From Syntrophobacterales bacterium (GTDB lineage Bacteria; Desulfobacterota; Syntrophia; Syntrophales; UBA8958), in contig JAGPFL010000002.1 in the NCBI GenBank assembly GCA_018056545.1, positions 1 through 62,792 on the forward strand: a stretch of DNA of 62,792 nt, in the 5' to 3' direction. This document shows, one piece after another, positions 25,288 through 42,169 of this stretch (the stretch's first letter is position 1; the number at the start of each line of letters is the position of its first letter). Both the position numbers and the translations under genes were made by a program. Under the pieces are notes generated by a model, which was given only the letters and a program-made list of their open reading frames with translations, made no database searches and was not told the DNA's origin.

Positions 25288-25731
25288 ATGTTTGGAACAG
25301 GAGCATGGAGGTTCGGAAGACTGCTGGATCCGTACGCGGAATTGTCTCGCTTGCGGAACGAAATGAACCGTTTATTTTCCGGTACCGCGTCGGCATTCGT
25401 CCAGACCTATCCGGCCGTTAATATCTGGGTTGGCGACCAGGAGATAACCATTACGGCGGAGTTGCCCGGGATAGATCCGGAAAAGATTGACATATCGGTA
25501 TTGGGCGACAATCTTACCCTGGCGGGCAGCCGGGAGGTCGAAAACCTTCAGGAAGACGAAACCTATCATCGTCAGGAAAGAAACGGCAGCCGTTTTTCCC
25601 GGACCCTGCAACTGCCTTTCCGCATCGATGCCTCGAAGATCGAGGCACGTTACGAAAAGGGCGTTCTGAAAATCAACGCCCCCCGGGCAGAGGAAGACAA
25701 ACCGAGGAAAATAGCCATCAAAGCGGCATAG
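25288..25731 (+). CDS. Hsp20/alpha-crystallin small heat-shock protein (1 of 3)
   Basis: Alpha-crystallin domain with AELPGIDPEKIDISV and the C-terminal KIAIKAA. AAAGGAGG RBS. The second in-frame ATG is chosen. Confidence 0.85.
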   Translation: MFGTGAWRFGRLLDPYAELSRLRNEMNRLFSGTASAFVQTYPAVNIWVGDQEITITAELPGIDPEKIDISVLGDNLTLAGSREVENLQEDETYHRQERNGSRFSRTLQLPFRIDASKIEARYEKGVLKINAPRAEEDKPRKIAIKAA

Positions 25732-26192: not shown

Positions 26193-26699
26193 ATGTTTGG
26201 AAGAAGTTTATTGCCTTCCCTATGGCGACAGACGGATGTTTCTCCGACGCGCGGAGAAGAGCATCCCCTGTCCGTGATTCAAAGGGATATGAACCGTCTG
26301 TTTGACGATTTTTTCCGGGATATGGGAACAGGACTGTGGAGTGGTCCGGGAGAAAGGCTGAACCGGTTCGTCCCTTCGCTGGATGTCATTGAGAATGATA
26401 AGGAATTCACCATCAAGGCGGAACTTCCCGGCATGGATGAGAAGGACGTGGAGGTTCTGCTGACGGAAAGCAATCTCACCCTCAAAGGTGAAAAGAAAGA
26501 GGAAAAGGAAGACAAGGGTAAGGACTACTATCATCTGGAAAGGTCCTATGGATCGTTTCAGAGGGTGATTCCTCTCCCTGAGGGTCTTGAAACCAAGAAG
26601 GCGGAAGCCGTGTTCGAAAAGGGCGTGTTGCGCATCACCCTTCCCAAGACGGAGACGGCCAAGGCCAAAGCCAAAAAAATCGAGATCAAATCACGTTGA
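26193..26699 (+). CDS. Hsp20/alpha-crystallin small heat-shock protein (3 of 3)
   Basis: 168 aa with AELPGMDEKDVEVLL, GVLRITLPK and KIEIKS. Confidence 0.88.
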   Translation: MFGRSLLPSLWRQTDVSPTRGEEHPLSVIQRDMNRLFDDFFRDMGTGLWSGPGERLNRFVPSLDVIENDKEFTIKAELPGMDEKDVEVLLTESNLTLKGEKKEEKEDKGKDYYHLERSYGSFQRVIPLPEGLETKKAEAVFEKGVLRITLPKTETAKAKAKKIEIKSR

Positions 26700-27872: not shown

Positions 27873-27945
27873 CCTGACCCGCAAAGTCGGGGTGAAAAAA
27901 CGGAAGCAATGATGATTCGGCGCAATCAACGGCGCGGATAGCCTC

Positions 27946-29382
27946 TCAAGAAGCGGCCGGGACGTCCCCCGACAGGGCCCGGTGGATGGCCTGGGCGGCC
28001 TTGCGGCCCGCCCCCATGGCCAGGATGACCGTGGCGGAACCGGTGACGATGTCCCCCCCGGCATAGACGCCGGATCGGGTCGTTTCCCCCGACTCGCCCT
28101 TGACGACGATATAGCCCCGACGATTTGTCTCCAGCCCCGGGGTCGTGGCGGGGACAATGGGGTTGGCCATGGTCCCCACGGCAACCACGACGGTGTCCAC
28201 CGCGATGACGAATTCCGATCCGGGAACGGGTACGGGACTGCGGCGACCCGAGGCGTCCGGTTCCCCCAACTCCATGCGGAGGCACTTGACGCCTTGCACC
28301 CAGCCGTTCTCGCCCAGATACTCCACGGGATTGGTCAGCAAATGGAACTGCACCCCCTCTTCCTTGGCGTGATGGACCTCCTCTTTCCGGGCGGGCATCT
28401 CCACCTCGCTGCGCCGGTAGATGATATAGGCGTTGTCCGCCCCGAGGCGCAGGGCGGTGCGGACCGAGTCCATGGCCACATTGCCCCCGCCGATCACGGC
28501 CACGTTCTTGCCCCGGACGATGGGGGTGTCGTATTCGGGAAACCGGTAGGCCTTCATGAGGTTCGAGCGGGTCAGGTATTCATTGGCCGAGTAGATGCCG
28601 CTCAGGTTTTCGCCGGGAATGTTCATGAACACCGGCGCCCCGGCTCCGACCGCGATATAGACGGCGTCGAAACCCGCCGCAAAAAGCTCGTCCACGGTGT
28701 GCAGACGACCGATGACGGCGTTGACGACGATCTTGACGCCCAGTTTGCGCAGATAGTCCACCTCGGCCTCCACGATCGCCTTGGGGAGACGGAATTCGGG
28801 AATTCCGTAAACCAGGACGCCTCCGGCCTTGTGGAGGGCCTCGAAAACCGTGATATCGTAACCGAGTTTGACGAGATCCCCGGCGATGGTCAATCCCGAC
28901 GGGCCGGCGCCCACCACGGCAATCTTTTTCCCCTTCGGCGGCGCCACCTCCGGAACGGTCACGGCGCCCCGTTCCCGTTCGTAATCGGCGGCGAATCTCT
29001 CCAGACGGCCGATGGCCACGGGTTCCCCCTTCTTGCCCAGGATGCAGGTCTTCTCGCACTGGTCCTCCTGGGGGCAGACCCGACCGCAGACGGCGGGGAG
29101 GCTGTTGGTCTCCTTCAGGGTCCGGGCGGCACCCAGGAAATCGCCCGCGGCGATCTGCTTTATGAATTCGGGGATCTTCACATCCACCGGGCATCCCGCC
29201 ACACAGCCCGGCTTCTTGCACTGGATACACCGCGCCGCCTCCCGCATGGCCGTTTCCGGCGCATAACCGAGCGGCACCTCGTCGAAATTCCTGATCCGCT
29301 CCCCGGGATCCTGCTCCGGCATGACCTGACGGGGAATTTTCTCCTTTTTGGGTTTCTCGATCGTTTCTTCCATCTTCCTCAC
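27946..29382 (-). CDS. nfnB: NfnB / SudA-type NADPH-dependent glutamate synthase small-subunit-like oxidoreductase
   Basis: 478 aa. It has N-terminal 2x[4Fe-4S] Cys motifs and two dinucleotide folds (VVGAGPSGLT, VIGGGNVAMD). It sits next to an NfnA/SudB-like gene. Confidence 0.8.
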   Translation of the reverse strand: MRKMEETIEKPKKEKIPRQVMPEQDPGERIRNFDEVPLGYAPETAMREAARCIQCKKPGCVAGCPVDVKIPEFIKQIAAGDFLGAARTLKETNSLPAVCGRVCPQEDQCEKTCILGKKGEPVAIGRLERFAADYERERGAVTVPEVAPPKGKKIAVVGAGPSGLTIAGDLVKLGYDITVFEALHKAGGVLVYGIPEFRLPKAIVEAEVDYLRKLGVKIVVNAVIGRLHTVDELFAAGFDAVYIAVGAGAPVFMNIPGENLSGIYSANEYLTRSNLMKAYRFPEYDTPIVRGKNVAVIGGGNVAMDSVRTALRLGADNAYIIYRRSEVEMPARKEEVHHAKEEGVQFHLLTNPVEYLGENGWVQGVKCLRMELGEPDASGRRSPVPVPGSEFVIAVDTVVVAVGTMANPIVPATTPGLETNRRGYIVVKGESGETTRSGVYAGGDIVTGSATVILAMGAGRKAAQAIHRALSGDVPAAS

Positions 29383-29549
29383 TGTGTCCCTGTTGCTTTA
29401 TCGCTCCGTTCCGGGAAGGCAGCCCTCAAAGGAGCGAAGTAACCTCACCTTTCCAGAAGATCCTCTCTGACGGCAAAAATGGGCGTCAACGGTTTTTTCC
29501 CGAATATGTAACGCCCGAAAACGACGTGGCCGTTCCCCGAAAGCTCCGC

Positions 29550-30386
29550 CTAATTTCCCTGCCATCCGCACCGGTGCCGTTCGTAGGACTCCCCCTCCTG
29601 GGCACAGTACATCCGCAGGCGGCTGGTCAACAAGTCAAAATCCACCTCATGGCCGTCGAACTCCGGCCCGTCCACACAGGTGAATTTTGTCTTCCCCCCC
29701 ACGGCGACCCGGCAGGCGCCGCACATCCCCGTGGCATCCACCATGATGGCGTTCAGGCTGACGATGGTCTTGATCCCATACGGGCGGGTGAGATTGGCGA
29801 TCACCTTCATCATGGGCACGGGTCCGATGGCGAAGACCCGGTCGATCTTCTCCCCGGCATCGATAATACCCTGAAGGACGTTGCTGACAAACCCGTGGAC
29901 GCCATAGCTGCCGTCATCGGTGGCCACGATCAATTCGTGACTTGCCGCCCGCATTTCTGCTTCGAGAATAATCAGGGACCTGGTTCGGGCGCCGATAATG
30001 GAGGTTACCCGGTTGCCCGCCTCCTTGAGGGCTTTGGTGATGGGATAGATGACCCCCACACCCACACCGCCGCCGATACAGACCACATGGCCGTAGTTTT
30101 CGATCTCCGTGGGATTGCCCAGGGGTCCCTGAACATCCTGTATCTCATCCCCCACGGCAAGTTCGGACATGAGGGCCGTGGTCTTGCCCACGATCTGGTA
30201 GATGATCGTCACGGTTCCCTTTTCCCCGTCGGAATCCACGATGGTCAAGGGTATCCGCTCCCCCCGCTCGTTCACCTTGAGAACGAGAAACTGGCCCGCC
30301 CGGCGTTTCCGGGCGATCTCCGGCGCCTCCAGATCCATGCGGACCACACTGTCCGACAACTGCTCTTTATAAACGATCCTGCTCAA
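29550..30386 (-). CDS. nfnA: NfnA / SudB-type ferredoxin-NADP reductase-like subunit (FAD, [2Fe-2S])
   Basis: 278 aa with a PyrK-like fold. The C-terminus is GMCGACRV...FTCVDGPEFDGHEVDF. Confidence 0.8.
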   Translation of the reverse strand: MSRIVYKEQLSDSVVRMDLEAPEIARKRRAGQFLVLKVNERGERIPLTIVDSDGEKGTVTIIYQIVGKTTALMSELAVGDEIQDVQGPLGNPTEIENYGHVVCIGGGVGVGVIYPITKALKEAGNRVTSIIGARTRSLIILEAEMRAASHELIVATDDGSYGVHGFVSNVLQGIIDAGEKIDRVFAIGPVPMMKVIANLTRPYGIKTIVSLNAIMVDATGMCGACRVAVGGKTKFTCVDGPEFDGHEVDFDLLTSRLRMYCAQEGESYERHRCGWQGN

Positions 30387-30479
30387 GAATTTTCTCCTTT
30401 TTTGTGCTCAGATACGCAGAAGGAGCCGGCAAGGCTCCTTCTGATCGACCATGGAATATGCGGAAAAGCTAAGGAAAAA

Positions 30480-31319
30480 TCAAAAATCCCTTGTCAATTT
30501 ATCAAGTTCCGCGAAAGTGAAGACGGGGCCGTCCTTGCAGACGTATTTGCTTCCCACGTTGCACCGCCCGCACTTGCCGATACCACACTTCATCCGCATC
30601 TCCAGGGAGGTGATGATGTTTTCCTTGGAGAAACCGAGTTCAAAGAACACCGGGAGGGTGAAGCGGATCATGATGGGCGGACCGCAGATGACCGTCACGG
30701 CGTTTTCCGGGCTGGGGCCGACCTCCTTGCAGACCGTGGGCACGAAACCCTCCCGGCCCTTCCAGTTGGCGTCACCCTTGTCCACCGTCACGTTCAGATC
30801 GATATCGTCCCGTTTACTCCAGGCCTCCAGCTCGTCCTTGTAGATGAGGAGCCCGGGGTTGCGGGCGCCGTAAACCACCGTAATCTTTCCGAAACGCTTT
30901 CGGTTGTCGCCGAAGGTCATGTAATTGATCAGGGAGCGCAGGGTCGTAAAGGCAAAACCGCCGCCGACGATGACGACATTCTTTCCCTCGAGATATTCTA
31001 TGGGCCAGGAATTTCCCAGGGGGCCCCGGAGACCCATCCGCGTCCCCACCTCCATCTCGTGTAGGGCCGAGGTGACGACGCCGGCCTTCTGGACCGTGAA
31101 TTCCACATAGCCCGGCTGGGTCGGCGAAGAAGCGATGCCGATGGGTGATTCTCCCTTGCCGAAAAGGGACAATTCGGCGAACTGGCCGGGGATGTACTTG
31201 AATTTCTCCTCGTCTTCCTTGTTCACGAAGGCCAGACGGAAGGTCTTGATATCCTTCGTATCCACCTCGGTGACGATCTTTATGACCTCGACAGGATAGG
31301 GTATGTAAGGGTTTTGCAT
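30480..31319 (-). CDS. FAD/NAD(P)-binding iron-sulfur oxidoreductase (FlxA / AsrB / HydG-like)
   Basis: 279 aa with a ferredoxin-reductase-type fold. The C-terminal cluster motif is CGIGKCGRCNVG...VCKDGPVF. Confidence 0.75.
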   Translation of the reverse strand: MQNPYIPYPVEVIKIVTEVDTKDIKTFRLAFVNKEDEEKFKYIPGQFAELSLFGKGESPIGIASSPTQPGYVEFTVQKAGVVTSALHEMEVGTRMGLRGPLGNSWPIEYLEGKNVVIVGGGFAFTTLRSLINYMTFGDNRKRFGKITVVYGARNPGLLIYKDELEAWSKRDDIDLNVTVDKGDANWKGREGFVPTVCKEVGPSPENAVTVICGPPIMIRFTLPVFFELGFSKENIITSLEMRMKCGIGKCGRCNVGSKYVCKDGPVFTFAELDKLTRDF

Positions 31320-31334
31320 GACTTTCTCCCAGCT

Positions 31335-32357
31335 CTATAGTTTCGATATATCGGTGACGATCTTCCGGATGTCGATATTTACGGGGCAGTACATGACACA
31401 GCGGCCGCAGCCCACGCAGGCAATGGCGTTGAAATTCTCCGGGTAGTAACTGAATTTGTGCATCGCCCGCTGGCGCCACCGCTCCTTCTGGGTGGGGCGG
31501 GGATTGTGACCCGACGTCTCCTTGGTGAACATGGGAAACATGCAGGAATCCCAGTTCCGCAGACGCCGGCCGTCGCTCCGCATCATCTCGTCGGAGATGT
31601 CGAAGCAATGACAGGTGGGACACAGGAAGGTGCAGGTCCCGCAGGCGAGACAGCGCTGATGGACGGTGTTCCAGAAGGGGCTGTTGAAGTTGGCGTCCAT
31701 GATCGGTTTGACTTCCCGGCCGGGGATGTGGGATTTGATCTCCGCCGCCGCCTGAGCGGCGATGGCTTCCTTCTTCGCCTCGGCGGCGGCATCGGCCTTG
31801 TCCCCGCCGAAATGACCCAGGAGTTTCTCCCCCTTGGGGGTGATGAATTCCGCCAGATAATGGTCGCCCAGATCGGTGAGCAGGACATCCGCCCCGTCGG
31901 CGGCCACGGGATGACCGTCCACGGAGGTGCAGAAGCACGTGGCGTAGGGGGGGTGAACGCAGGCCAGGGCGACGATCGTGGTCTTTTCCCGCTTGTCGAT
32001 GTAATAGGGATCCCGGTACTTCTCCTGATCGAAGAGCATATCCAGCAGGACATAGCTTCGGGCGTCACAGGGCCGCACCCCGAAAAGGACGGCTTTCTCC
32101 GCTTCTTTCTGGCCGGCGGTGAATTCCACACCTTTAGGCGTCCGGGTATAGCGCAGCATGACCTCGCTACGGGGGAAGAAGAAGTTCTTGGGGGCGTTTT
32201 TGCTGTTGGCATAATTCAGGAACGCCTCCTCTCCTTTCTCCAGCGCCTTGAAGAGGACATTGTCTTCCACCTTCACCGGGGCAAAAACTGTTGCCTCTTG
32301 AGCGATCTTCCCGATGATCCCTGTCAGAGCGTCTTTTTTGATCAACCGTTTTTCCAT
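31335..32357 (-). CDS. 4Fe-4S dicluster protein (FlxB / AsrA / HydB-like)
   Basis: Starts at MEKRLIKK (ATG 32357, AAGGA RBS). Cys motifs are CLACGTCTFLCPTCHC and CVGCGRCVMYCP. Confidence 0.75.
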   Translation of the reverse strand: MEKRLIKKDALTGIIGKIAQEATVFAPVKVEDNVLFKALEKGEEAFLNYANSKNAPKNFFFPRSEVMLRYTRTPKGVEFTAGQKEAEKAVLFGVRPCDARSYVLLDMLFDQEKYRDPYYIDKREKTTIVALACVHPPYATCFCTSVDGHPVAADGADVLLTDLGDHYLAEFITPKGEKLLGHFGGDKADAAAEAKKEAIAAQAAAEIKSHIPGREVKPIMDANFNSPFWNTVHQRCLACGTCTFLCPTCHCFDISDEMMRSDGRRLRNWDSCMFPMFTKETSGHNPRPTQKERWRQRAMHKFSYYPENFNAIACVGCGRCVMYCPVNIDIRKIVTDISKL

Positions 32358-32395
32358 ATCGTCCTTCAGTATGAGAAATTGTGGATATATTATTC

Positions 32396-33250
32396 TTAAA
32401 GGAGCCCGAGGCTGCTGACCAGCGGTACGGGGTCCACATTGTGCAGCTTGAACCACCCGGCGGTCCCCGGCAGACCCAGGGACAGCGAAACGAGTTCCGT
32501 GAAGTAGAAGACCGGCAACCGCAGATTCTCGCTGGCCCGGGCATCGAGATTCGCCATGCAGACCGGACAGGCAGTGACGACGCAGTTGGCCCCGGCCTCC
32601 CGGGCCATGGTCATGAGCTTGTCCACCAGTTTCCCGACGATATCCGTCCGGCTGATGGTGAGGCTGCCGCCGCAGCAGTCCGTTTTGTAAGACCAGTTCT
32701 TCACGTCCGCCCCCAGGGTGGCGAGGATCTCGTCCAACATGTAGGGATTTTCGTAATTCTCGAAGTTGCAGACCTCGGGGGGCCGGACCAGGAGGCAGCC
32801 GTAATAGGACACGGGACGTAACCCGGTGAGTTTCTTGATCACCTTGTCCTTCAGGGCGTCCAGACCGATGTCGTGGTAGAGGATATCGATGGGGTTCTTG
32901 ACGCTCAGTCCCGGGACGTACTTCTGTCCCACAATACCCTCCACCTCCGTCTTGAGGCCCTGATCATGATCGAGATGGTGCTGTGCCGACTTGAAACGGT
33001 TGAAGCAGGCGGCGCAGGGCACCATCATCTCCTTGAGGTCCCCCTTGCCGGCAATCATGAGATTCCGGGCGGGAAGGGCCACGGAGAGCTTGAAGTTCGT
33101 GGCATGTCCCGAGGTGGCGCCGCAGCAGGACCAATCGTCGATTTCTTTCAGCTCGATCCCCAGGGCGCGACTCATGGCCTTGACGGACTGATCGTATTCT
33201 TTCGCCGTCCCGTGTAGGGAACATCCCGGATAATATGAAACTTTCAACAC
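32396..33250 (-). CDS. hdrB: heterodisulfide reductase subunit B-like (two CCG domains)
   Basis: 284 aa with CCG motifs WSCCGA...PCAACF and TDCCGG...ACPVCM. Confidence 0.85.
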   Translation of the reverse strand: MLKVSYYPGCSLHGTAKEYDQSVKAMSRALGIELKEIDDWSCCGATSGHATNFKLSVALPARNLMIAGKGDLKEMMVPCAACFNRFKSAQHHLDHDQGLKTEVEGIVGQKYVPGLSVKNPIDILYHDIGLDALKDKVIKKLTGLRPVSYYGCLLVRPPEVCNFENYENPYMLDEILATLGADVKNWSYKTDCCGGSLTISRTDIVGKLVDKLMTMAREAGANCVVTACPVCMANLDARASENLRLPVFYFTELVSLSLGLPGTAGWFKLHNVDPVPLVSSLGLL

Positions 33251-33276
33251 TTGCCTCCTTGCTGTCGCTTACCGCG

Positions 33277-33885
33277 TCACGCGTTTTTCGTTTTGTCGAA
33301 TATCTTCCGGACCGCATCGAGATCCCGGGTCTTGGGGGAGACCAGAGACAATTTGCCCTTCATGAACATGGAAATGCCCAGGCCCATATCGGAGAAGAGG
33401 TCCCCGGATTTGAGCTTGTAGTCCACCATCATGAACGGCTCGTTGATCCGGCCCCGGGATTTGATGCTGGCCAGGAACGCCTCGTGGAAGGAGAGGACGT
33501 TCTTTTCCCTGGCCCCGATGCCGGCGGCGATGGCCATTTCCCTAAGGGCATCCATCATGCGGGCGATATCCACCTCGTTGGGGCAGCGGGTGATGCAGGT
33601 TTCACAGGATGCGCAGAGCCAGATGGTGGAACTTCCCAGGACCTCGTTTTTCATCCCCATCTGGATCATCCTGATGACCTTGTTGGGGTTGTGTTCCATG
33701 GCGAAGGCCAGGGGGCACCCGGCGGTGCACTTCCGGCAGTGATAGCAACGCTGCAGGGGCACGCCGTTGATCTTTTCGTTTACTTCTTCCAGAAAGGTCT
33801 TCATGTTGACTCCATTCGCCGTTCGGTCATCCTCGGTTAAGGGCAGACAGCCGTAGGATTTGACCAGGACCTTGTTGCCGGTCAT
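33277..33885 (-). CDS. hdrC: heterodisulfide reductase subunit C-like
   Basis: 202 aa with CYHCRKCTAGCP and CASCETCITRCP. The ATG is 3 nt after the upstream stop. Confidence 0.85.
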   Translation of the reverse strand: MTGNKVLVKSYGCLPLTEDDRTANGVNMKTFLEEVNEKINGVPLQRCYHCRKCTAGCPLAFAMEHNPNKVIRMIQMGMKNEVLGSSTIWLCASCETCITRCPNEVDIARMMDALREMAIAAGIGAREKNVLSFHEAFLASIKSRGRINEPFMMVDYKLKSGDLFSDMGLGISMFMKGKLSLVSPKTRDLDAVRKIFDKTKNA

Positions 33886-33888
33886 AAT

Positions 33889-34899
33889 TTAGGGGTTATA
33901 GATAAAATCTTCCTTGTCGTGCTCCTTGAAGGTGGAAAGGGGCGGCGGATCGTCGAGGGACGAGCCCGCCCGGTTGCCGAAGAAGTCGAAGGCGTCCTTG
34001 TCGAGCTTCTTGAGGAATTTCCTCAGATCCACCCCCATGGGACAGACGGACACACAGGAACCGCAGTCCACGCAACGCCCCACCATGTGGTACAGCCGCA
34101 TGAACTGGAACACCTGGGTATCCGTGGCATCCTCGCCGAGACCCACCCACTGGGGCTGGGTCTGCTCGACGAAACAGATCTTACAGTAACAGGAGGGACA
34201 GGCCTGGCGGCAGGCGTAACAGCGGATGCACTTGGACATCTCCTTGGTGAAATATGCCCAGCGCTCCTCCGGCGGCAGTTTCTCGAAGGCCTCCACCGCG
34301 GCGTATTCCTCCGCCGCCCCCGCCATGGCCGAGGCCGGCTCGCCGACCATGACATCGTTGAGGACGGGATTGTTGAACTTGCAGGTCCGGCAATTGTCCG
34401 CCAGGACGTCCGCCAGGAGGACTTCCTTCTTTCCCCCCGCCGTCTGGACGACCAGTTTGTCTCCCGTCAGGGATCCCTCCCGGATGTCCGCACCGTCCAG
34501 AACCGCCGCCAGGGCCTTGCGATCCACATAACCGGTGCAGGGCACGCCGATGATCACCACCTCTTCCCGCCCGTACTGCCGCTCCTGAAGATGGAGCACC
34601 AGGGAACGGGTGGTGCAGCCTCGGGCCACGACACCCACCACCTTTTTCTTCCGGTCCTCCGGTTTGACCCGTTTCTGGGCTTCCCGGTGCTGGGAGATCA
34701 GGTCATGGACGTACTTGGCCAGATTCTGGGTACAAAAGGCGTTCCAGACGAGCTTGTCCGCGTCCTCCGGATTCGTGATGAAACAGGGCGTCGCCGTCAG
34801 GGGCAGGGTGCCCGCCTCGTAACCCACCAAGGCATCCACCCTCTTTTCCTCCAGGAGCCGTTTTGCCTCTTCCCTTAGCTTTTTCTCGATGTTTTCCAC
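33889..34899 (-). CDS. iron-sulfur protein (FlxC / FrhB-like N-domain plus 2x[4Fe-4S])
   Basis: CIRCYACRQACPSCYC and CVDCGSCVSVCPMG. The GTG at 34899 has a GAGGA RBS. The ORF-track GTG at 34962 is the alternative start. Confidence 0.7.
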   Translation of the reverse strand: MENIEKKLREEAKRLLEEKRVDALVGYEAGTLPLTATPCFITNPEDADKLVWNAFCTQNLAKYVHDLISQHREAQKRVKPEDRKKKVVGVVARGCTTRSLVLHLQERQYGREEVVIIGVPCTGYVDRKALAAVLDGADIREGSLTGDKLVVQTAGGKKEVLLADVLADNCRTCKFNNPVLNDVMVGEPASAMAGAAEEYAAVEAFEKLPPEERWAYFTKEMSKCIRCYACRQACPSCYCKICFVEQTQPQWVGLGEDATDTQVFQFMRLYHMVGRCVDCGSCVSVCPMGVDLRKFLKKLDKDAFDFFGNRAGSSLDDPPPLSTFKEHDKEDFIYNP

Positions 34900-34983
34900 T
34901 TTATCTGAATCCTCGAATTTGTATTTTCTATGGCATGGCCGACGCCGGGCCGGCCGCCGCACCCGGCATCCCCAAAACGGTCT

Positions 34984-35421
34984 TTACAGGGTCTTCACCA
35001 GCTTCGTCGCCGGACCGAGGGCCTGGACCTTGGCGGTCACGCCCTTGATGACATTGGCGAAACGTTCTCCCTCCGAGGCGGAAATCCAGGTAAAGATCGC
35101 CCGGTCACCTTCCACTCCGATGTAGTCCAGGAAACTTTTCAACGTCGCAAACTTGCGGCGCGCCACCATATTTCCTGAAATGTAGTGGCATTCACCGGGG
35201 TGTCAACCGGAAACCAGCACGCCGTCGGCTCCCGTCTGCAGCGCCTTCACGACGTAAAAGGGGTTGATCCTTCCCGTGCAGGGAACGCGCACGATGCGCA
35301 CGTTCGGCGGATACTGAATCCTGCTGATGCCGGCCAGATCGGCGCCGGCGTAAGTACACCAGTTGCAGACGATGGCGACGATCTTGGGCACCCATTCCTT
35401 GTTTGCTACACTTTCACCCAT
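34984..35421 (-). CDS. mvhD: MvhD/FlxD-type methyl-viologen-reducing hydrogenase delta subunit, selenocysteine-containing (TGA at 35203-35205 read as Sec)
   Basis: Two track ORFs (35203..35421 and 34984..35169) share one frame. Read-through gives [19 protein letters not shown]...[28 protein letters not shown]..., a full-length MvhD. A SECIS-like hairpin lies 13 nt after the TGA. Confidence 0.75.
35162..35189 (-). other. SECIS-like stem-loop
   Basis: The minus strand reads GCCACUACAUUU-CAGG-AAAUAUGGUGGC. That is 12 stacked positions with one C.A mismatch and one G.U. It starts 13 nt downstream of the UGA. Confidence 0.55.
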
Positions 35422-35527
35422 ATATTCTCCTTCCCGTGGCTATGCGGCTTTATCGGCCGTTGACCTTAGTTAGCAACCCACGCCACCGCGGCGGCACTTT
35501 ATCAAAGAGTAAATTCGGAAAATTTAC

Positions 35528-38500
35528 TCAGAAGATATTGTATATCTGCTCCAGCTCTTCTTCGTTGGTGAAACCGTTGAGATCCACGGCGTTCATCCGG
35601 CACGAGGCCGTGCACACCCCGCAGCCCTTGCACAGGACGGTGTTCACCTCCGCACAGGCCTCCACGACGTTCACCGAAATGGCGCCGAAGGGACAGTTCT
35701 GTTCACAGAGGCCGCAGGCGGCGCAACGCTCCTTGTTCACATAGGCCGTCTTCCCCTCCGCCTCGATGAAATCTTTGGTAAGGATGGTGCAGGCCCGGGA
35801 TACCGCGGCGTTGGCCTGGACAATGGCGTCCTCGCTGAGCTTCGGGGCATGGGCCATGCCGCACATGAAGACGCCGTCGGTGGCGAAATCCACAGGACGG
35901 AGCTTCACATGGGCCTCCAGGAAGAAGCCGTCCTGGTTCGTGGGCACCTTGAGCATCTTGCCGATTTCCTCGTTTTCCGGATTGGGCACGGTGCCTACGC
36001 TCAAGGCGAGCAACTCCGTCTTGAACTCCACCGGGGCGTTCATGATGGGATCGAAGACCCGGAGGGAAAGTTGGTCGCCCTGCTGGATCACCTCCGGTTT
36101 CCGGTCTTCGTCATAGCGGATGAACCGGACGTTCAGCTCCCGGGCCTTTTTGTAGTAGTCCTCCTTCAGGCCGAAGGTGCGGATGTCGCGGTAGAGGATG
36201 GTGACCTCCCGGGTCGGATCCAGCTCCTTGAGCTTCAGGGCGTTCTTCATGGCCTCGGAACAGCAGTAACGGCTGCAGTAAGGCCGCTCCGGAATCCGGG
36301 AACCCACACACTGGATCATGGTCACGCTGCGGGCCTTGAGGGCCTTGTCTTCCTTCTCGGCGATGAGCTTTTCCAGCTCCCGCTGGGTGACGACCTGGGG
36401 GGACTGACCGTAGAGATACTCCTTGGTTTCCAGCTCATAACCCCCGGTGGCCACGATGACCACCCCGTGCTCGAACTGTTCTTCCCCGTCCCTCGTCGTG
36501 ATGGTGGTCTTGTAGTTGCCGATGAAACCTTCGATCTTCTTGATGATCGCCCCGGTGTAGGCATGGATGAGCTTGCTGGCCTGAACCCTGTCCAGGAGGG
36601 ACTTCAGGTGCCGGCGGGTGTCCAGCCCCTCCAGGGTGTAGTAGAGCTTCCGGTAATTGCCGCCCAGGACCGGTTCCTTCTCTACGATATAGGACTCGTA
36701 GCCCTGATCGGCCAGGGAGAGGGCCGCGGTGATGCCGGCGAGACCGCCGCCGATGATGAGAGTGGCGTGATTAACCGTCAACTGCCCCGGTTTCAGGGGC
36801 TTGAGGAACTGTGCCTTGGCGACGGCCATCCGCACCAGATCCTTGGCCTTTTCCGTGGCCTCCTGGGGCTCGTGCATGTGCACCCAGGAGTTCTGATCGC
36901 GGATGTTGGCCATCTCGAAGAGATAGCGGTTGAGCCCCGCCTTCTCACAGTTCTCCTGGAAGAGCCCTTCGTGGGTCCGGGGGGAACAGGAGGCCACGAC
37001 CACCCGGGTCAGGTTCTGTTCCTTGATCACCTCGCCCATCTTCACCGCCGTATCCTGGGAGCAGGTAAAGAGATTGTCCGTGGCGAAGACGACGTTGGGC
37101 AGGGTCTTGCAGTATTCCACCACCTCGGGGACATTGACGACGCCGCCGATGTTGATGCCGCAATGGCATACGAAGACGCCCGTCCGGGGACCGAGGCCCC
37201 GGAGATCGGATTCCAGAGGCAGTTCTTCCTCCGTGATCATCGTCCCCCGCCGGGATGCCAGGATCCCCGCCGCGCAGGCCGCGGCGCCGCTGGCTTCCAT
37301 GACCGTCTCGGGGATGTCCTTGGGACCGCCGAAGGCGCCGCAGACGAAGACGCCGCTCCGGGACGTCTCCACGGGATTCTCCAAGGCGGTCTTGCAGAAG
37401 CCGTGCTCCTCGAGCTCGATCCCCAGGGCCTTCGCCAGCGCCGCCGCCTCCGGGGGCGGGCAGAGACCCACGGAGAGGACCACCATGTCGAATTCCTCCT
37501 CGATGAGGCTGCCGTCCTCCTGGACGTATTTCAGCAGCAGGTTCTTGGACTGCTGAAGTTCCTTGATCGTCGAGGGCATGGAGCGGATATAGCGGATCCC
37601 GTATTCGTCCTTCGCCCGGTTGACGAAGCGGTCGAAATCCTTGCCGTGGGCCCGGATATCCATGAAGAAGATCGTGGGTTCGAGCTCCTTGGCGTGTTCC
37701 TTGCCGATGATGGCCTCCTTGGTGGCATACATGCAGCAGACGGAGGAGCACCAACTGTTGCCGCAGGAGGTGTCGCGGGAACCGACACACTGGATGAAGG
37801 CGATTTTCTTCGGCTCCCGGCCGTCGGAGATGCGCTGGACATGGCCGAAATAGGGCCCCGAGGCGGAAAGGATCCGCTCGAACTGGATGCTGGTGACCAC
37901 GTTCTGGTAAATCCCGAAGCCGTATTCGCCCCGGAGCCGGGCGTCGAAAACCTCGAAACCCGGTGCGGCGATGACGGCGCCGACTTCGATGGTCTCCTCT
38001 TCGAAGGTGTCGTCATGGTTGATCGCCCCGGCGATACAGGCCTCGACGCACTGATAACATTCCGAACAGATCCCGCAGGCAAGACAGCGCTTGGCCTCCG
38101 CCACGGCCTCTTCCTCGGTGAAGCCGATGCCCACCTCCCGGAAGTTCGTTCTCCGGTCTTCCGGTTTCATGTGGGGGTATTTCCTTCGCGGGACCTTCGC
38201 GACCTTGGAGACGTCGGCCTTGTCGGCCAAATTCTTGGTCCAGTCCTTCGCCCGGCCCGCCGCCACGTCCTCGCCCCGGAGATACCGGTCGATGGAGACC
38301 GCCGCCTCCTTACCGGCATAGACGGCCTTCACCACCGTCGCGGGACCGGTGACCACGTCGCCGCCGGCAAAGACACCCGGGGTGGTCGTGGCGAAGGTCA
38401 CCGGATCGACGTCGAAATTCTTCCACTTGTTGATGGCGATGCCGCTCTCTTTGGGGACGAAATCGAGATCCGCCTCTTGGCCGATGGCGGGGATCAGGGC

Positions 38501-39964
38501 GTCACAGGGGACGATGAACTCCGAACCCTTGATCTCCACGGGACGGCGTCGGCCGCTGGCATCGGGCTCTCCCAGTTCCATACGGGTACATTCCACCCCC
38601 GTGACCTTACCGTTTTCCCCGACCACCCGTTTGGGGGCCACAAGGAATTCCATCTTGATACCCTCTTCCAGGGCCTCTTCGATCTCTTCGGGGGAGGCGG
38701 GCATCTCCGCCCGGGACCGGCGGTAGAGGATGAAGACGTCCTTGGAGCCGGTGCGGATGGCCGTCCGGACGGCGTCCATGGCGACGTTCCCGCCGCCGAC
38801 CACGGCGACCTTGTCTCCCAGGAAGACCTTTTCGCCCAGGTTGACCCGCTTCAAATAATCCACGCCGTGGATGACCCCCTGCATATCCTCGCCGGGGATG
38901 TTGAGTTTGCTGCTATTGACGGTACCGCAGCCGATGAACACCGCGTCGAAGTCGCTCTGGAGCTTCGCGAAGGGGATGTCCTTGCCCACGGCGGTGTTGA
39001 GATGGATCTTTACCCCCAGATCCTCGATGACCTTGATCTCCGCCTTCAGGACATCTTTGGGAAGGCGGTATTCGGGGATGCCCACGGCGAGCCAGCCGCC
39101 CGCCACGGGGAGGGATTCGAAGACCTCTACGTCGTAGCCCTCGGCGGCCAGATAATAGGCGCAGGTGAGGCCCGCGGGACCGGCGCCCACCACGGCCACC
39201 TTCTTGCCCTTGCTCTCCTTCTTCTCGGGAAGGTAGCGGGTTTCGTCTTTCAGATCCAGATCGGCGACGAAACGCTTCAAGTGCATGATGTCGATGGGCT
39301 CTTCCACCTTGCCCCGCATACACGCCGTCTCGCAGGGGTGGTTGCACACCCGGCCGCAGACGATGGGGAAGGGATTGTCCTTTTTGATGAGCTTCAAGGC
39401 CTCTTTGTATTTCCCGGCGGCGATCAGGGCCACGTAGCCCTGGACGCTGATGTGGGTGGGACAGGCCGCCTTGCAGGGGGAGGTGCCGACCTTGTCGATG
39501 GCATAACCGCTGGGAATCGCCTGGGGAAACTTGCGATAAGTCGCCTGGCGCTCGGAAAGATTCTCGTTGAAATCGGAAGGGACGTTGATGGGGCAGACCT
39601 TGGCGCAGTCGCCGCAGCCCGTGCACTTGTTCAGGTCGATGAACCGGGGGGCCCTGGTCATCTTTACCTTGAATTTTCCCGCCTCCCCTTCCACGGCGTT
39701 GACCGTGCGCCGGGTGAGGATCTCCACATTGGGATGCCGGCCTACCTCCACCAGTTTCGGGGAAAGGATGCAGGCGGAACAATCGTTGGTGGGAAAGGTC
39801 TTGTCGAGCTGGGCCATGACGCCGCCGATACTGATGTCCTTTTCCACCAGATAGACCTTCAGGCCGGAGTTGGCCAGATCCAGGGAAGCCTGAATTCCGG
39901 CGATGCCGGAACCGACCACCATAACTGCACCGATTTTTTCATTGTCATTGATCACGTGAGACAC
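35528..39964 (-). CDS. HdrL-type giant HdrA-like flavoprotein (HdrA module split by a GltD/NfnB-like NAD(P)H module, then a second HdrA module and C-terminal ferredoxin domain)
   Basis: 1478 aa. Three dinucleotide-binding starts are present (VVGSGIAGIQ, VVGAGPAGLT, IIGGGLAGIT). Two HdrA signature regions are present (IQCVGSRDTSCGNSWCSSVCC and IQCVGSRIPERPYCSRYCC). There are multiple 4Fe-4S motifs. Confidence 0.85.
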   Translation of the reverse strand: MSHVINDNEKIGAVMVVGSGIAGIQASLDLANSGLKVYLVEKDISIGGVMAQLDKTFPTNDCSACILSPKLVEVGRHPNVEILTRRTVNAVEGEAGKFKVKMTRAPRFIDLNKCTGCGDCAKVCPINVPSDFNENLSERQATYRKFPQAIPSGYAIDKVGTSPCKAACPTHISVQGYVALIAAGKYKEALKLIKKDNPFPIVCGRVCNHPCETACMRGKVEEPIDIMHLKRFVADLDLKDETRYLPEKKESKGKKVAVVGAGPAGLTCAYYLAAEGYDVEVFESLPVAGGWLAVGIPEYRLPKDVLKAEIKVIEDLGVKIHLNTAVGKDIPFAKLQSDFDAVFIGCGTVNSSKLNIPGEDMQGVIHGVDYLKRVNLGEKVFLGDKVAVVGGGNVAMDAVRTAIRTGSKDVFILYRRSRAEMPASPEEIEEALEEGIKMEFLVAPKRVVGENGKVTGVECTRMELGEPDASGRRRPVEIKGSEFIVPCDALIPAIGQEADLDFVPKESGIAINKWKNFDVDPVTFATTTPGVFAGGDVVTGPATVVKAVYAGKEAAVSIDRYLRGEDVAAGRAKDWTKNLADKADVSKVAKVPRRKYPHMKPEDRRTNFREVGIGFTEEEAVAEAKRCLACGICSECYQCVEACIAGAINHDDTFEEETIEVGAVIAAPGFEVFDARLRGEYGFGIYQNVVTSIQFERILSASGPYFGHVQRISDGREPKKIAFIQCVGSRDTSCGNSWCSSVCCMYATKEAIIGKEHAKELEPTIFFMDIRAHGKDFDRFVNRAKDEYGIRYIRSMPSTIKELQQSKNLLLKYVQEDGSLIEEEFDMVVLSVGLCPPPEAAALAKALGIELEEHGFCKTALENPVETSRSGVFVCGAFGGPKDIPETVMEASGAAACAAGILASRRGTMITEEELPLESDLRGLGPRTGVFVCHCGINIGGVVNVPEVVEYCKTLPNVVFATDNLFTCSQDTAVKMGEVIKEQNLTRVVVASCSPRTHEGLFQENCEKAGLNRYLFEMANIRDQNSWVHMHEPQEATEKAKDLVRMAVAKAQFLKPLKPGQLTVNHATLIIGGGLAGITAALSLADQGYESYIVEKEPVLGGNYRKLYYTLEGLDTRRHLKSLLDRVQASKLIHAYTGAIIKKIEGFIGNYKTTITTRDGEEQFEHGVVIVATGGYELETKEYLYGQSPQVVTQRELEKLIAEKEDKALKARSVTMIQCVGSRIPERPYCSRYCCSEAMKNALKLKELDPTREVTILYRDIRTFGLKEDYYKKARELNVRFIRYDEDRKPEVIQQGDQLSLRVFDPIMNAPVEFKTELLALSVGTVPNPENEEIGKMLKVPTNQDGFFLEAHVKLRPVDFATDGVFMCGMAHAPKLSEDAIVQANAAVSRACTILTKDFIEAEGKTAYVNKERCAACGLCEQNCPFGAISVNVVEACAEVNTVLCKGCGVCTASCRMNAVDLNGFTNEEELEQIYNIF

Positions 39965-40147
39965 CTCAAAAGATGGGTATATGCGGGTTTATATGCAAAA
40001 GCAGTCTTCAACGACGACCTTTTTCCCTATGCTGTTGACGGTTTATAACCGACGGAGCCGCTATCACGATTTGCCGAGCCTGTCAAGGGTAAAAGTAACC
40101 CTTTTCATTTTCCCCGGTTATGCGAACCTCCCGAAACGTTTATCGGT

Positions 40148-40772: not shown

Positions 40773-42146
40773 TCAATCCCGCTCGATGGTAATGCCGTAC
40801 TTCTCCAACTTCCGCTCGAAGGTGGGACGGGAAATGCCGAGGATGTCGCATATCTCCCCTTTGGTCTTATGGCTGTTTTCCTTGATGATCCTGCGGATAT
40901 ACTGTTCCTCCACCGCCTCCAGAGTCAGGGGACGGCCGGCATCCGCCGTTTCTTCCTGGCCCTTGTTCACCGCCGTCAAGGCCTCTTCGGAAAGATCGGG
41001 GAAATCGCTCCGGGTGAGCACCTGGCTTTTGGCGACCACCACCGCCCGGGTAAGGAGGTTTTCCAACTCCCGCACATTGCCGGGCCAGCGGTAGTTCATG
41101 AAGACCTCCATCATTTCATCGGATACCCCGATGACCTTTTTATGTAGCTCCCGGTTGATCTTGGTCAACAGATAGTCCACCAGCACCGGCAGATCTTCCC
41201 GCCGCTCCCGGAGAGGGGGGATGCGGATGGAAACGATGTTCAGGCGATAATACAGATCATCCCGGAATTTACCCTCCTTGACCATGCCTTTGAGGTCCTT
41301 GTTGGTGGCGGCGATGATCCGGGCGTTGACCTTGATGGAATCCTTGCCGCCCACCCGTTCGAAGTCCATCTCCTGGAGGACCCGGAGCAATTTCGCCTGG
41401 AGATTCAAAGACATTTCACTGATCTCGTCCAGGAACACCGTGCCGTAGCGGGCCAGCTCGAACTTTCCCAGTTTGCGGGTGATGGCGCCGGTGAAGGATC
41501 CCTTTTCATGACCGAAGAGCTCCGATTCCAGGAGGGTTTCCACAATCGCCGAACAGTTGACGGCGATATAGGGTTCCTCGGGCGAGGTATTGTTGTGGAT
41601 GACCTTGGCGATGAGTTCCTTCCCCGTACCGCTCTCCCCCTGGATGAGAACGGTGGTCCGGCTTTGGGAGACGACGCCGATGGTCTTGAAGATCTCCTTC
41701 ATTTCCTTGGTGTTGCCGATGATATCGCCGACCTTGAAACTCCGGGAAGGCTCGTTGAGGAGACCGCTGATCTTTTTCTCCATCTCTAGGGTTTTCAAGG
41801 CTTTCCGGATGGCCATGTCCAGCTCTTCCACATTGATCGGCTTGTGGATGTAATCGAAGGCGCCCCCCTTCATGGCCTTGATGGTGGAATCCATGTCATG
41901 ATAAGCGGTGATCATGATCACCTTCACGTTTTCGTCCTCGTCCCGGAGATCCTCCAGGACGGTGAAGCCGTCGATGTCGGGAAGGCGGATATCGAGGATG
42001 ACCACATCCGGGGCATGCTTCACAAAGGCATTGAGACCATCCGTTCCCGTAGCGGCGGTATACACCGTATATCCTTCCTCGGTCAGATAGAGATCGAGGC
42101 TCTCCGCAATGGAACTGTCGTCGTCAATCACCAGAATTTTTGCCAT
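40773..42146 (-). CDS. sigma-54-dependent response regulator (NtrC/Fis family)
   Basis: Starts at MAKILVIDDD (ATG 42146). It has a receiver domain and an AAA+ domain with GESGTGKE and GAFTGA. The C-terminal HTH is EICDILGISRPTFERKL. The ORF-track start is too far upstream. Confidence 0.9.
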   Translation of the reverse strand: MAKILVIDDDSSIAESLDLYLTEEGYTVYTAATGTDGLNAFVKHAPDVVILDIRLPDIDGFTVLEDLRDEDENVKVIMITAYHDMDSTIKAMKGGAFDYIHKPINVEELDMAIRKALKTLEMEKKISGLLNEPSRSFKVGDIIGNTKEMKEIFKTIGVVSQSRTTVLIQGESGTGKELIAKVIHNNTSPEEPYIAVNCSAIVETLLESELFGHEKGSFTGAITRKLGKFELARYGTVFLDEISEMSLNLQAKLLRVLQEMDFERVGGKDSIKVNARIIAATNKDLKGMVKEGKFRDDLYYRLNIVSIRIPPLRERREDLPVLVDYLLTKINRELHKKVIGVSDEMMEVFMNYRWPGNVRELENLLTRAVVVAKSQVLTRSDFPDLSEEALTAVNKGQEETADAGRPLTLEAVEEQYIRRIIKENSHKTKGEICDILGISRPTFERKLEKYGITIERD

Positions 42147-42169
42147 GGAGCGCTCCTGATCGTTTCGTC

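Follow-up and report, generated by a model that had tools for sequence, protein, structure and literature searches.

An HdrL-containing Flx-Hdr gene cluster in a Syntrophales bacterium, read as a predicted seven-gene operon with neighboring nfnAB

Results

We examined a cluster of redox genes in which hdrL-flxD(mvhD)-flxC-hdrC-hdrB-flxB-flxA probably constitutes a single operon that is driven by a conserved sigma-70 promoter and encodes a soluble flavin/iron-sulfur complex of the Flx-Hdr type, with nfnAB as a neighbor linked to it through shared pools rather than as a subunit. We hold this reading with reasonable, though by no means full, confidence. A division into 7 + 2 genes describes the cluster better than a nine-gene unit does.

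The window (the whole stretch of DNA that was analyzed, 62,792 nt) is from contig JAGPFL010000002.1 of Syntrophobacterales bacterium assembly GCA_018056545.1, a member of the Syntrophales from anaerobic sludge. Rfam detected one tRNA in this ~63-kb window. The nine minus-strand redox ORFs named in the original prediction were all present between 27946 and 39964, in the order HdrL, Sec-MvhD/FlxD, FlxC-like, HdrC, HdrB, FlxB-like, FlxA-like, NfnA and NfnB. The predicted gaps of 3-167 nt agree with the longest-ORF coordinates; with gene-caller starts from 98%-identical contigs, they become 15-176 nt. Pfam and NCBIfam domain assignments, together with motif matches, bore out the predicted gene identities, as summarized below.

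35528..39964, minus strand: hdrL, longest ORF 1478 aa; fused HdrA pair with an NfnB-like insert
34984..35421, minus strand: mvhD/flxD, 145-aa predicted selenoprotein; full-length match to PF02662 (174 bits)
33889..34899, minus strand: flxC-like iron-sulfur protein, 336 aa; FrhB_FdhB_C at 24.1 bits (cut-off 23.3), two CxxCxxCxxxCP motifs
33277..33804, minus strand: hdrC, 175 aa; two CxxCxxCxxxCP motifs
32396..33250, minus strand: hdrB, 284 aa; PF02754 matched twice, two complete CCG motifs
31335..32357, minus strand: flxB-like (AsrA/HydB-like) iron-sulfur protein, 340 aa; Fer4_22 at 120 bits
30480..31319, minus strand: flxA-like (AsrB/HydG/PyrK-like) FAD/NAD(P)-binding 2Fe-2S protein, 279 aa; FAD_binding_6 (PF00970), NAD_binding_1 (PF00175), DHODB_Fe-S_bind (PF10418)
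29550..30386, minus strand: nfnA, 278 aa, TTG start; NF004862 at 414 bits (cut-off 220)
27946..29373, minus strand: nfnB, 475 aa with the ATG at 29373 as start; TIGR01316 at 594 bits (cut-off 472)

The likely start of hdrL is a GTG at 39955, giving a protein of 1475 aa. HdrA-type Pfam and NCBIfam matches fell in four stretches of HdrL, and residues 160-660 matched a GltD/NfnB module (NF009410, 584 bits; cut-off 516). With solved HdrA (5ODC) as the reference, HdrL residues 16-158 and 633-849 matched HdrA residues 148-290 and 293-510, respectively, residues 926-1102 matched the HdrA N-domain, and residues 1321-1477 matched its C-terminal ferredoxin domain. Residues 161-640 are NfnB-like (match to 4YLF_B, E 2e-110), and this insert is 45% identical over 418 aa to the NfnB encoded in the window. 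Both architectural claims of the original prediction were thereby upheld: the IQCVGSR...C...CC signature of HdrA occurs twice (residues 724-744 and 1217-1235), and the GltD/NfnB-like module is inserted in the first HdrA module. Module 1 has no N-terminal domain and retains the NDCSAC cysteines, which are equivalent to Cys197, along with its inserted ferredoxin domain. In module 2 the N-terminal cluster domain remains, as does the C-terminal ferredoxin domain, but neither a Cys197 equivalent nor an inserted ferredoxin domain is present. Judged from its sequence, HdrL is two fused HdrA modules with complementary domain losses, and it may act as a single-chain pseudo-heterodimer in place of the HdrA homodimer. 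The NfnB-like NADPH/FAD module splits module 1's inserted ferredoxin domain; equipped with an FAD site of its own, a YRRS site of the NADPH type and Fe-S motifs, it would supply HdrL with a built-in pyridine-nucleotide port. The cluster cysteines, FAD motifs and YRRS were all invariant in 12 HdrL sequences (77-100% identity). HdrL scored below the cut-offs of the NCBIfam equivalogs for methanogen-type HdrA (NF040770, 972 bits vs 1100; NF041778, 695 vs 1400), and contained no in-frame TGA.

The mvhD gene starts 106 nt downstream of hdrL. In keeping with the predicted selenoprotein electron connector, its in-frame TGA (35205-35203, residue 73) aligned with a Cys codon in 80 mvhD homologs, while another 23 have TGA there as well. 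A SECIS-like hairpin at ~35189-35162 starts 13 nt past the UGA, and its apical loop lies ~26-29 nt downstream; when compared with shuffles, the 76-nt fold did not stand out (z = -1.2). For the flxC-like gene, we adopted the start from gene calls in 98% relatives. The predicted CCG-domain HdrBC pair was likewise recovered, HdrB having two matches to the regular expression C-x(28-40)-CC-x(30-40)-CxxC (residues 10-82 and 152-231) and HdrC two 4Fe-4S motifs. Both scored under the NCBIfam cut-offs of the methanogen enzymes (HdrC: TIGR03290, 73 bits; cut-off 160). The FlxB-like protein matched ShyB/HydB/AsrA models, all under their cut-offs, and the NCBIfam matches of the FlxA-like protein were of the AsrB/HydG type.

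The nfnA and nfnB genes are adjacent, and both products exceed their NCBIfam cut-offs. NfnA contains the 2Fe-2S motif of one Asp and three Cys (residues 217-237), and NfnB the YRRS NADPH motif; on these sequence features, nfnAB encodes a bona fide NfnAB transhydrogenase. Pyridine-nucleotide sites are thus present, by domains and motifs, in the HdrL insert, the FlxA-like protein and NfnAB, as originally proposed. In contrast to known NfnAB, the nfnA-nfnB spacer is unusually long (176 nt, vs 8-47 nt in relatives L005, L008 and L009); it is spanned by RNA contigs.

We next considered transcription of the cluster, for which three further elements are relevant:

40058..40086, minus strand: predicted sigma-70 promoter of the hdrL operon; -35 TTGACA (40086-40081), 14 nt, extended -10 TGaTAGCGG (40066-40058)
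35507..35529, minus strand: perfect 9-bp hairpin GAGTAAATT/AATTTACTC overlapping the hdrL stop codon; predicted energy -7.2 kcal/mol
30418..30442, minus strand: GC-rich hairpin GAAGGAGCC-ttgcc-GGCTCCTTC between flxA and nfnA; predicted energy -12.7 kcal/mol

The -35 box and TGnTA were invariant upstream of hdrL in an alignment of eight Syntrophales lineages, and no sigma-54 consensus site was found there. The RNA evidence consists of unstranded assembled metatranscriptome contigs from mixed strains, for which depth reflects expression poorly and which may include carried-over DNA. Contig depth was present in the bin 39609-40075, and was approximately zero from 40076 on as well as in the genes flanking the cluster. 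Contigs spanned the hdrL/mvhD, mvhD/flxC, flxC/hdrC, hdrC/hdrB, hdrB/flxB and flxB/flxA junctions, and by contig depth this seven-gene operon is highly transcribed. Contig continuity thus extended across every junction from hdrL to flxA, but flxA/nfnA was bridged by one contig only, 86% identical to the window, and contig depth over nfnAB was several-fold below that over hdrL-flxA. The flxA-nfnA spacers of L001, L005, L008 and L009 also contain a hairpin, which in the last three is followed by a T-run, like an intrinsic terminator; that of the window is without a T-run. Contig depth falls downstream of the window's hairpin, which is likely an attenuator or 3'-end stabilizer. Taken together, these findings indicate that hdrL to flxA behaves as a single transcription unit with its own conserved promoter. 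The lower expression of nfnAB could reflect read-through of the hairpin after flxA and/or a start of its own.

The hairpin at the hdrL stop codon exists as predicted; the window contains 11 distinct perfect hairpins of ≥9 bp, this one included. Its suggested role as a processing or stability element fared less well: 98% relatives preserve it, with G.U pairs resulting from two A>G changes, but it is absent from relatives at 76-80% identity, and one RNA-derived strain variant is without 61 nt containing it. We regard the case for such a role as weak.

Gene order was compared across relatives. The seven genes occur in identical order in L001-L004, L005, L007, L008, L009 and L011, and the interleaved flxC-hdrC-hdrB-flxB-flxA order was maintained across 76-100% HdrL identity. 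The expected conservation of gene order thus held for the seven genes; for nfnAB, it held in the four Syntrophales lineages in which the pair adjoins the seven-gene set, but not in Smithella. In Smithella sp. SCADC (L011), the seven genes are present at 67-86% identity per protein and nfnAB is absent from the position after flxA. The gene past nfnB varies among close relatives, HlyIII being present or absent.

Full-length HdrL relatives were found in at least 65 genomes from many phyla, and mvhD follows hdrL in nearly all of the 65 HdrL loci. Among ~58 distant full-length HdrL loci, 7-8 had flxCBA without hdrB, ~16 had hdrCB and ~25 had neither; the distant HdrL-MvhD pairs that have no Flx or HdrBC genes nearby suggest that HdrL need not act with these partners. 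An nfn gene lay within 10 kb of HdrL in 3/58 distant loci (L013, where it is immediately upstream of HdrL, L021 and L060), compared with ~0.2-0.4 expected under assumed copy number and genome size (Poisson P ~0.001-0.008). Since nfnAB recurs near distant HdrL above chance, it may plausibly be linked in function to the operon by way of common NADPH, NADH and ferredoxin pools.

Discussion

Three other readings of the locus were weighed. A super-assembly of all nine products, in which NfnAB would dock on HdrL-Flx-HdrBC (a PyrK-like subunit might, for instance, bind the NfnB-like insert) and couple NADH, NADPH, ferredoxin and a disulfide, draws on the co-orientation of the genes, the adjacency kept in four Syntrophales lineages, the Nfn genes near distant HdrL, the single RNA contig running from flxA into nfnA, and the homology of FlxA to NfnA and of the HdrL insert to NfnB. 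We nevertheless consider it very unlikely: Smithella has the seven genes without nfnAB, a hairpin and T-run separate flxA from nfnA in three lineages, contig depth over nfnAB is several-fold lower, and NfnAB is a self-sufficient heterodimer in solved structures 4YLF and 5JCA. For these reasons, together with the separate promoter-led unit of seven genes, the nine-gene unit or assembly that included Nfn in the original prediction was not sustained. Several of the same observations, namely the missing nfnAB of Smithella, the terminator-like hairpin and wide spacer between the units, and their unequal expression levels, could be taken to mean that nfnAB lies beside the operon by chance or through lineage-specific rearrangement, and is functionally unlinked to it. 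This, too, appears highly improbable, since the adjacency survives in four lineages at 76-80% HdrL identity, while the gene past nfnB varies among close relatives, and nfn lies near distant HdrL more often than expected. Chance juxtaposition of Nfn with Flx-Hdr, which had been named beforehand as an outcome that would refute the predicted grouping, is thus at odds with both the Syntrophales lineages and the distant loci.

The remaining reading, in which HdrL-MvhD is an autonomous NADPH-dependent module and Flx and HdrBC are one or two separate enzymes merely co-transcribed with it in Syntrophales, strikes us as unlikely, although mvhD nearly always follows hdrL in the ~58 distant loci while the other partners vary. 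The interleaved gene order maintained at 76-100% HdrL identity argues against it, HdrL alone is without an evident acceptor site except ferredoxin, and MvhD is established as the electron connector that joins HdrA to a donor module such as Mvh, Fdh or Flx (PMC2702500). We therefore retain the seven-gene operon with pool-linked nfnAB as our working interpretation.

The locus resembles FlxABCD-HdrABC of Desulfovibrio vulgaris Hildenborough (Ramos et al. 2015, as cited in PMC5947623 and PMC10553843), as originally proposed, in rearranged form; we judged this likeness (to DVU2399-2405) by domains, motifs and gene order. As far as the citing accounts describe that system, it shares a PyrK/AsrB-like FlxA, Fe-S FlxB and FlxC, an MvhD-like FlxD, a CCG HdrB and HdrC as well as solubility, and its proposed function is to couple the oxidation of NADH with ferredoxin and DsrC reduction (PMC10553843), a bifurcation from NADH to ferredoxin and a disulfide like that proposed here. 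It differs in having a separate single-module hdrA, in place of which the window encodes the 1478-aa HdrL with its extra NfnB-like NADPH module, and in its order (flxABCD-hdrABC vs hdrL-flxD-flxC-hdrC-hdrB-flxB-flxA). In the window, moreover, FlxD is a predicted selenoprotein and the host belongs to a syntroph lineage, so that DsrC is only a candidate acceptor here.

The name HdrL used in the original prediction proved correct by the definition of Strittmatter 2009, an HdrA/glutamate-synthase fusion followed by mvhD, as in HdrL1-3 of Desulfobacterium autotrophicum HRM2 (PMC2702500). The loci share the large fusion of this type, an NAD(P)H-binding site, the adjacent mvhD and the presence of selenoproteins; the neighbors are dsrABC or fdh there and flx and hdrBC here, and HdrL1 and HdrL3 are themselves selenoproteins, whereas the HdrL described here has no in-frame TGA. 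The 2009 claim that HdrL is unique to D. autotrophicum (PMC2702500) is superseded by its occurrence in at least 65 genomes. A single locus of Syntrophobacter fumaroxidans, Sfum_0819-0824, likewise encodes HdrL, MvhD, an FdhB/FrhB-like Fe-S protein and HdrBC; these abundant proteins, detected only under sulfate-reducing conditions, were proposed to form a confurcating complex, but a separate hdrA is also present there and flxA/flxB are unreported (PMC5947623). The Hdr/Flox clusters of syntrophs including Smithella, called an uncharacterized syntroph-associated redox complex (PMC5606693, PMC7382037, PMC5017805), are probably the same seven-gene set, although in Smithella flxA is followed not by nfnAB but by a second Hdr/Flx-like gene set; HdrL architecture goes unmentioned in passages of these papers on Hdr/Flox. 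In ANME, fused HdrA3/4 with complementary N-terminal domain and Cys197 were read as a single-chain heterodimer, and HdrA9-11 carry a ~500-aa NfnB-like insertion by which the inserted ferredoxin domain is split (Chadwick et al. 2022, PMC9012536). Fusion and insertion occur there in separate paralogs, but are combined in HdrL; the module order of HdrL is also reversed, with the Cys197-equivalent module first, and its predicted partners are Flx proteins rather than Fdh or Mvh (PMC9012536). We found no biochemical or structural data on any HdrL-containing complex in the literature.

HdrL, the Hdr/Flox clusters of syntrophs, and fused or NfnB-inserted HdrA proteins have thus been described previously, and the locus is an uncharacterized example of a type of system already known. 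If the seven products form one complex, NAD(P)H electrons may enter through FlxA-FlxB-FlxC-MvhD and/or the HdrL insert and be bifurcated at an HdrA-type FAD, with one branch reducing ferredoxin and the other passing via HdrC to HdrB and its two CCG clusters to reduce some disulfide. NfnAB would be coupled to the operon by the shared NADPH, NADH and ferredoxin pools, and not as a subunit. The direction of the reaction may be the opposite one in a syntroph, giving confurcation.

Gene content of the cluster

The original prediction placed nine redox genes on the minus strand between positions 27946 and 39964, and all nine ORFs were present. We assigned families by Pfam and NCBIfam profile scans and checked motifs by regular expressions. 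An Rfam search of the cluster returned zero known RNA families.

Products of the nine genes, in the order hdrL to nfnB
HdrL, minus strand, 1478 aa: HdrA-type matches in four stretches; GltD/NfnB-type module at residues 160-660 (NF009410, 584 bits, cut-off 516)
MvhD/FlpD, minus strand, 145 aa: PF02662, 174 bits after reading through an in-frame TGA
FlxC-like, minus strand, 336 aa: FrhB_FdhB_C domain (weak) and two ferredoxin motifs
HdrC, minus strand: two ferredoxin motifs
HdrB, minus strand: two CCG domains, both CCG motifs verified by regular expression
FlxB-like, minus strand: AsrA/HydB-like Fe-S protein
FlxA-like, minus strand: AsrB/HydG/PyrK-like FAD/NAD(P)/2Fe-2S protein
NfnA, minus strand: NF004862, 414 bits (cut-off 220); 2Fe-2S motif of Asp plus three Cys (regular expression)
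NfnB, minus strand: TIGR01316, 594 bits (cut-off 472); YRRS (regular expression)

The closest HdrL proteins, at 98% identity, came from MAGs labelled Syntrophales. No identical entry was on record for the exact HdrL protein of the window (P0001, 1475 aa), and P0005 and P0002 were used as its stand-ins. Outside the cluster, the window is of housekeeping character: it carries sugar-nucleotide genes, HSP20, rpoD, dnaG, his genes, a TRAP transporter and RNase P RNA. Some of these surroundings were recorded separately:

25270-25731 and 26193-26699, plus strand: tandem HSP20-family genes, a short way downstream of the cluster
49267-49654, minus strand: bacterial RNase P RNA class A (316 bits), between the PPDK gene and rpoD/dnaG
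50536-50608, minus strand: tRNA gene, in the same interval

Anatomy of HdrL

The name and definition of HdrL given in the original prediction agree with the published ones (PMC2702500), and the doubled IQCVGSR...CC motif that it reported was recovered by regular expression, as were three GxGxxG FAD motifs. We mapped the protein against the solved HdrA 5ODC.

Correspondence between HdrL and HdrA (5ODC)
HdrL 16-158, HdrA 148-290: start of the thioredoxin-reductase-like FAD domain and first half of the inserted ferredoxin domain
HdrL 633-849, HdrA 293-510
HdrL 926-1102, HdrA 4-180: N-terminal cluster domain and start of the second FAD domain
HdrL 1321-1477, HdrA 491-649: end of the FAD domain and C-terminal ferredoxin domain

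Module 1 retains the NDCSAC cysteines (equivalent to Cys197) and lacks the N-terminal domain; module 2 possesses an N-terminal domain, with CHCG at residue 933, and lacks both the Cys197-equivalent cysteines and the inserted ferredoxin domain. The two HdrA modules complement one another. Chadwick et al. (PMC9012536) took the same complementary pattern in ANME archaea as a single-chain HdrA heterodimer, and described for ANME-1 HdrA9-11 an NfnB-like insert of ~500 aa within the inserted ferredoxin domain. HdrL unites fused modules with the NfnB-like insert.

Chains of NfnB and its relatives align with HdrL residues 161-640 (4YLF_B, E 2e-110), the StnC-type ones over 162-640. With the NfnB whose gene lies 6 kb downstream, the insert shares 45% identity over 418 aa, and YRRS was found in both. 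In that pairwise comparison (E 2e-8), the N-terminal 44 residues of NfnB (8-51, as far as the first CxxC) aligned behind the NfnB-like core of HdrL, at HdrL ~586-629 (within window 37985-39520, minus strand), not ahead of it. The insert is therefore permuted or extended relative to stand-alone NfnB, and the alignment suggests an origin that is either permuted or of the StnC/PRK12771 type.

A candidate selenocysteine in MvhD

The in-frame TGA of mvhD (35205-35203, minus strand) sits in the motif VSG-U-HPGECHY. Among the mvhD genes of the fetched loci, 80 have Cys and 23 have TGA at the aligned position, the classic Sec/Cys interchange. A hairpin begins 13 nt past the UGA, a spacing compatible with a bacterial SECIS, and the whole 76-nt fold was not distinct from shuffled sequence. 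A different, small hairpin (CGGCCGATAAAGCCG; CGGCyGATAAAGCCG) lies at ~35440-35460 (minus strand), ~25 nt 5' of the mvhD start and directly ahead of the ribosome-binding site, GGAAGGAG. The Smithella loci L006, L007 and L011 share this hairpin, though the remaining spacer differs.

Conservation of gene order and of nfnAB adjacency

We scanned species-representative genomes and mapped the nine window proteins onto each of the 80 loci obtained. All nine genes occur in identical order in the four 98% relatives (L001-L004) and in three Syntrophales-type MAGs (L005, L008 and L009) whose HdrL is 76-80% identical. Two Smithella genomes (L007 and L011) possess the seven genes from hdrL to flxA, with nfnAB absent at that position. 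Directly after the operon, both Smithella loci (L007 10728-15386; L011 19692-24421) carry a second Hdr/Flx-like set consisting of an HdrC-like protein, an HdrA-like protein, an MvhD with Cys and a FlxC-like protein.

At ~50% identity, full-length HdrL was found in Desulfobacterota, Acidobacteriota, Chloroflexota, Bacillota, Planctomycetota and other phyla. In these distant loci mvhD nearly always comes next, and the other partners vary: flxCBA without hdrB in 7-8, hdrCB in ~16 and neither in ~25. Among the loci mapped, the interleaved order flxC-hdrC-hdrB-flxB-flxA was confined to the Syntrophales group. Three distant HdrL loci also have nfn genes within their fetched flanks, namely L013 (immediately upstream), L021 and L060, versus ~0.2-0.4 expected by a rough Poisson estimate over 0.8 Mb of flank, in which one or two nfn copies and a 4-Mb genome were assumed. 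Adjacency of nfnAB to hdrL is recurrent but non-universal.

The end of the cluster differs among close relatives. In contigs with 98%-identical HdrL, an HlyIII-family gene (208-212 aa; L001 22099-22725) lies between nfnB and a convergent alpha/beta-hydrolase gene, a position at which the window has a mere 73-nt gap (27873-27945); this is strain-level gene gain or loss. The nfnA-nfnB spacer (29374-29549) measures 176 nt in the window, ~135 nt in L001 and 8-47 nt in L005, L008 and L009, and RNA contigs cover it.

Promoter and transcription

Upstream of hdrL in eight Syntrophales lineages we found an invariant cTTGACA + 14 nt + TGnTA, and the corresponding window element (40086-40058) is a predicted sigma-70 promoter of the extended -10 type. 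Just upstream of hdrL, the same strand encodes a PAS histidine kinase, a sigma-54-dependent response regulator and a GTPase. We considered sigma-54 control of hdrL and rejected it: between the GTPase gene and hdrL there was no match to TGGCAC-N5-TTGC with up to 2 mismatches, and the conserved sigma-70 promoter lies there instead. The best sigma-54-like site of the window maps elsewhere, 55-100 nt 5' of a lone atpE-like gene:

40773-42356, minus strand: sigma-54 response regulator, divergent from the atpE-like/dCache pair
42170-44257, minus strand: PAS histidine kinase, likewise divergent from the pair
44660-44674, plus strand: TGGCATATCTGTTGC, 1 mismatch
44729-45151, plus strand: ATP-synthase c-subunit-like (atpE-like) gene (PF00137)
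45203-46516, plus strand: dCache-domain protein

This pair, and not hdrL, may be the target of the two-component system.

Transcription was assessed with contigs assembled from sludge-community RNA-seq runs and placed on the region; the runs containing the sequence were labelled activated sludge, sludge or wastewater metagenomes. Contig depth was roughly 5-70 from hdrL to flxA and 0-4 over nfnAB (up to ~13 at a looser threshold), and contigs were essentially absent over the flanking GTPase/regulator genes and the hydrolase gene.

Junctions spanned by RNA contigs
35357-35572: hdrL/mvhD
34532-35149: mvhD/flxC
33794-33945: flxC/hdrC
32753-33481: hdrC/hdrB
32343-32618: hdrB/flxB
31195-32075: flxB/flxA
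29376-29697: nfnA/nfnB

Between flxA and nfnA, no contig covered 30340-30567 at >=93% identity; at an 80% threshold, one related-strain contig (86% identical, depth 11.6) crosses from flxA into nfnA. In our interpretation, the seven genes hdrL-flxA make up one operon, and read-through from it into nfnAB is attenuated; this reading is provisional because the RNA contigs are unstranded, assembled and drawn from mixed strains.

Exact hairpin counting and comparison with relatives revealed a GC-rich hairpin after flxA, in the flxA-nfnA spacer (30418-30442, -12.7 kcal/mol). This spacer contains a hairpin in 4/4 nfnAB-bearing lineages; a T-run follows it in L005, L008 and L009, as in an intrinsic terminator, and none does in the window and L001. 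An automatic terminator scan of the region found nothing exceeding shuffle expectation.

The hairpin that the original prediction located at the hdrL stop does exist (-7.2 kcal/mol); its proposed role as a processing element did not hold as a conserved feature, the hairpin being retained in the closest relatives alone. The 98% relatives, like an RNA contig of their variant, differ at 3/5 loop bases and carry A>G changes at two stem positions, which give G.U pairs on the sense RNA. Selection on an RNA stem would leave such a pattern, but the changes number only two. The hdrL-mvhD spacers of the 76-80% relatives (27-45 nt, and 234 nt in L009) lack the hairpin, and one strain variant lacks 61 nt around it. 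If functional, it would be at most a lineage-specific stability element.

Discussion

Domains, motifs, synteny, promoter conservation and transcript continuity were observed, and the rest we infer from the protein families involved. NfnB bears the bifurcating FAD of Nfn and its NADPH site. In the enzyme solved by Wagner et al. in 2017 (PDB 5ODC), HdrB reportedly reduces disulfides at two non-cubane clusters held by CCG motifs. MvhD connects donor modules to HdrA (PMC2702500). For FlxABCD-HdrABC, NADH oxidation with reduction of ferredoxin and DsrC, bifurcating at the HdrA flavin, has been proposed (as cited in PMC5947623 and PMC10553843). The seven products most likely form a soluble seven-subunit complex, which NAD(P)H would enter via FlxA and/or the HdrL insert and whose partners would be ferredoxin and a thiol/disulfide; neighbouring NfnAB would balance NADH, NADPH and ferredoxin. 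The complex may run in the confurcating direction in syntrophs.

The three flavin sites of HdrL, two with an HdrA-type and one with an NfnB-type FAD, belong to types known for bifurcation elsewhere. A more elaborate arrangement, which we consider improbable, is that a PyrK-like subunit (FlxA or NfnA) docks on the NfnB-like insert and rebuilds an internal Nfn unit, such that the Syntrophales complex, possibly with NfnAB, acts as a serial or double-bifurcating machine, one particle coupling NADH, NADPH, ferredoxin and thiol/disulfide. Such a machine would explain the repeated presence of nfnAB beside hdrL. The simpler arrangement, a seven-subunit complex with NfnAB as its neighbour, is the one we favor.

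HdrL has been in the literature since 2009 (PMC2702500). Also published are the HdrABC/HdrL cluster of S. fumaroxidans (PMC5947623), Hdr/Flox clusters of Smithella and other syntrophs (PMC5606693, PMC7382037, PMC5017805) and fused and NfnB-inserted HdrA architectures (PMC9012536). Our literature search for a biochemical or structural study of HdrL or an HdrL-Flx complex found none. Our analysis adds the anatomy of the Syntrophales HdrL, an interleaved gene order specific to Syntrophales, a conserved promoter, evidence from transcripts and an nfnAB adjacency that recurs without being universal.

Flox/Flx-Hdr complexes are repeatedly listed as uncharacterised, syntroph-associated redox complexes. 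Their supposed role is to supply or consume reduced ferredoxin where methanogenic degradation of fatty acids, aromatics and alkanes runs at its thermodynamic limit. The abundant Syntrophales version is built on HdrL, a predicted pseudo-dimer that contains an NADPH module of its own; provisionally, it is one seven-gene transcription unit in sludge metatranscriptomes, with NfnAB beside it in several lineages. Together, these features define a concrete target, with boundaries for constructs, that purification, cryo-EM and assays can use. Our results sharpen an existing question and open no new one; they suggest that NADPH, besides NADH, takes part in the Flox/Flx-Hdr redox node.
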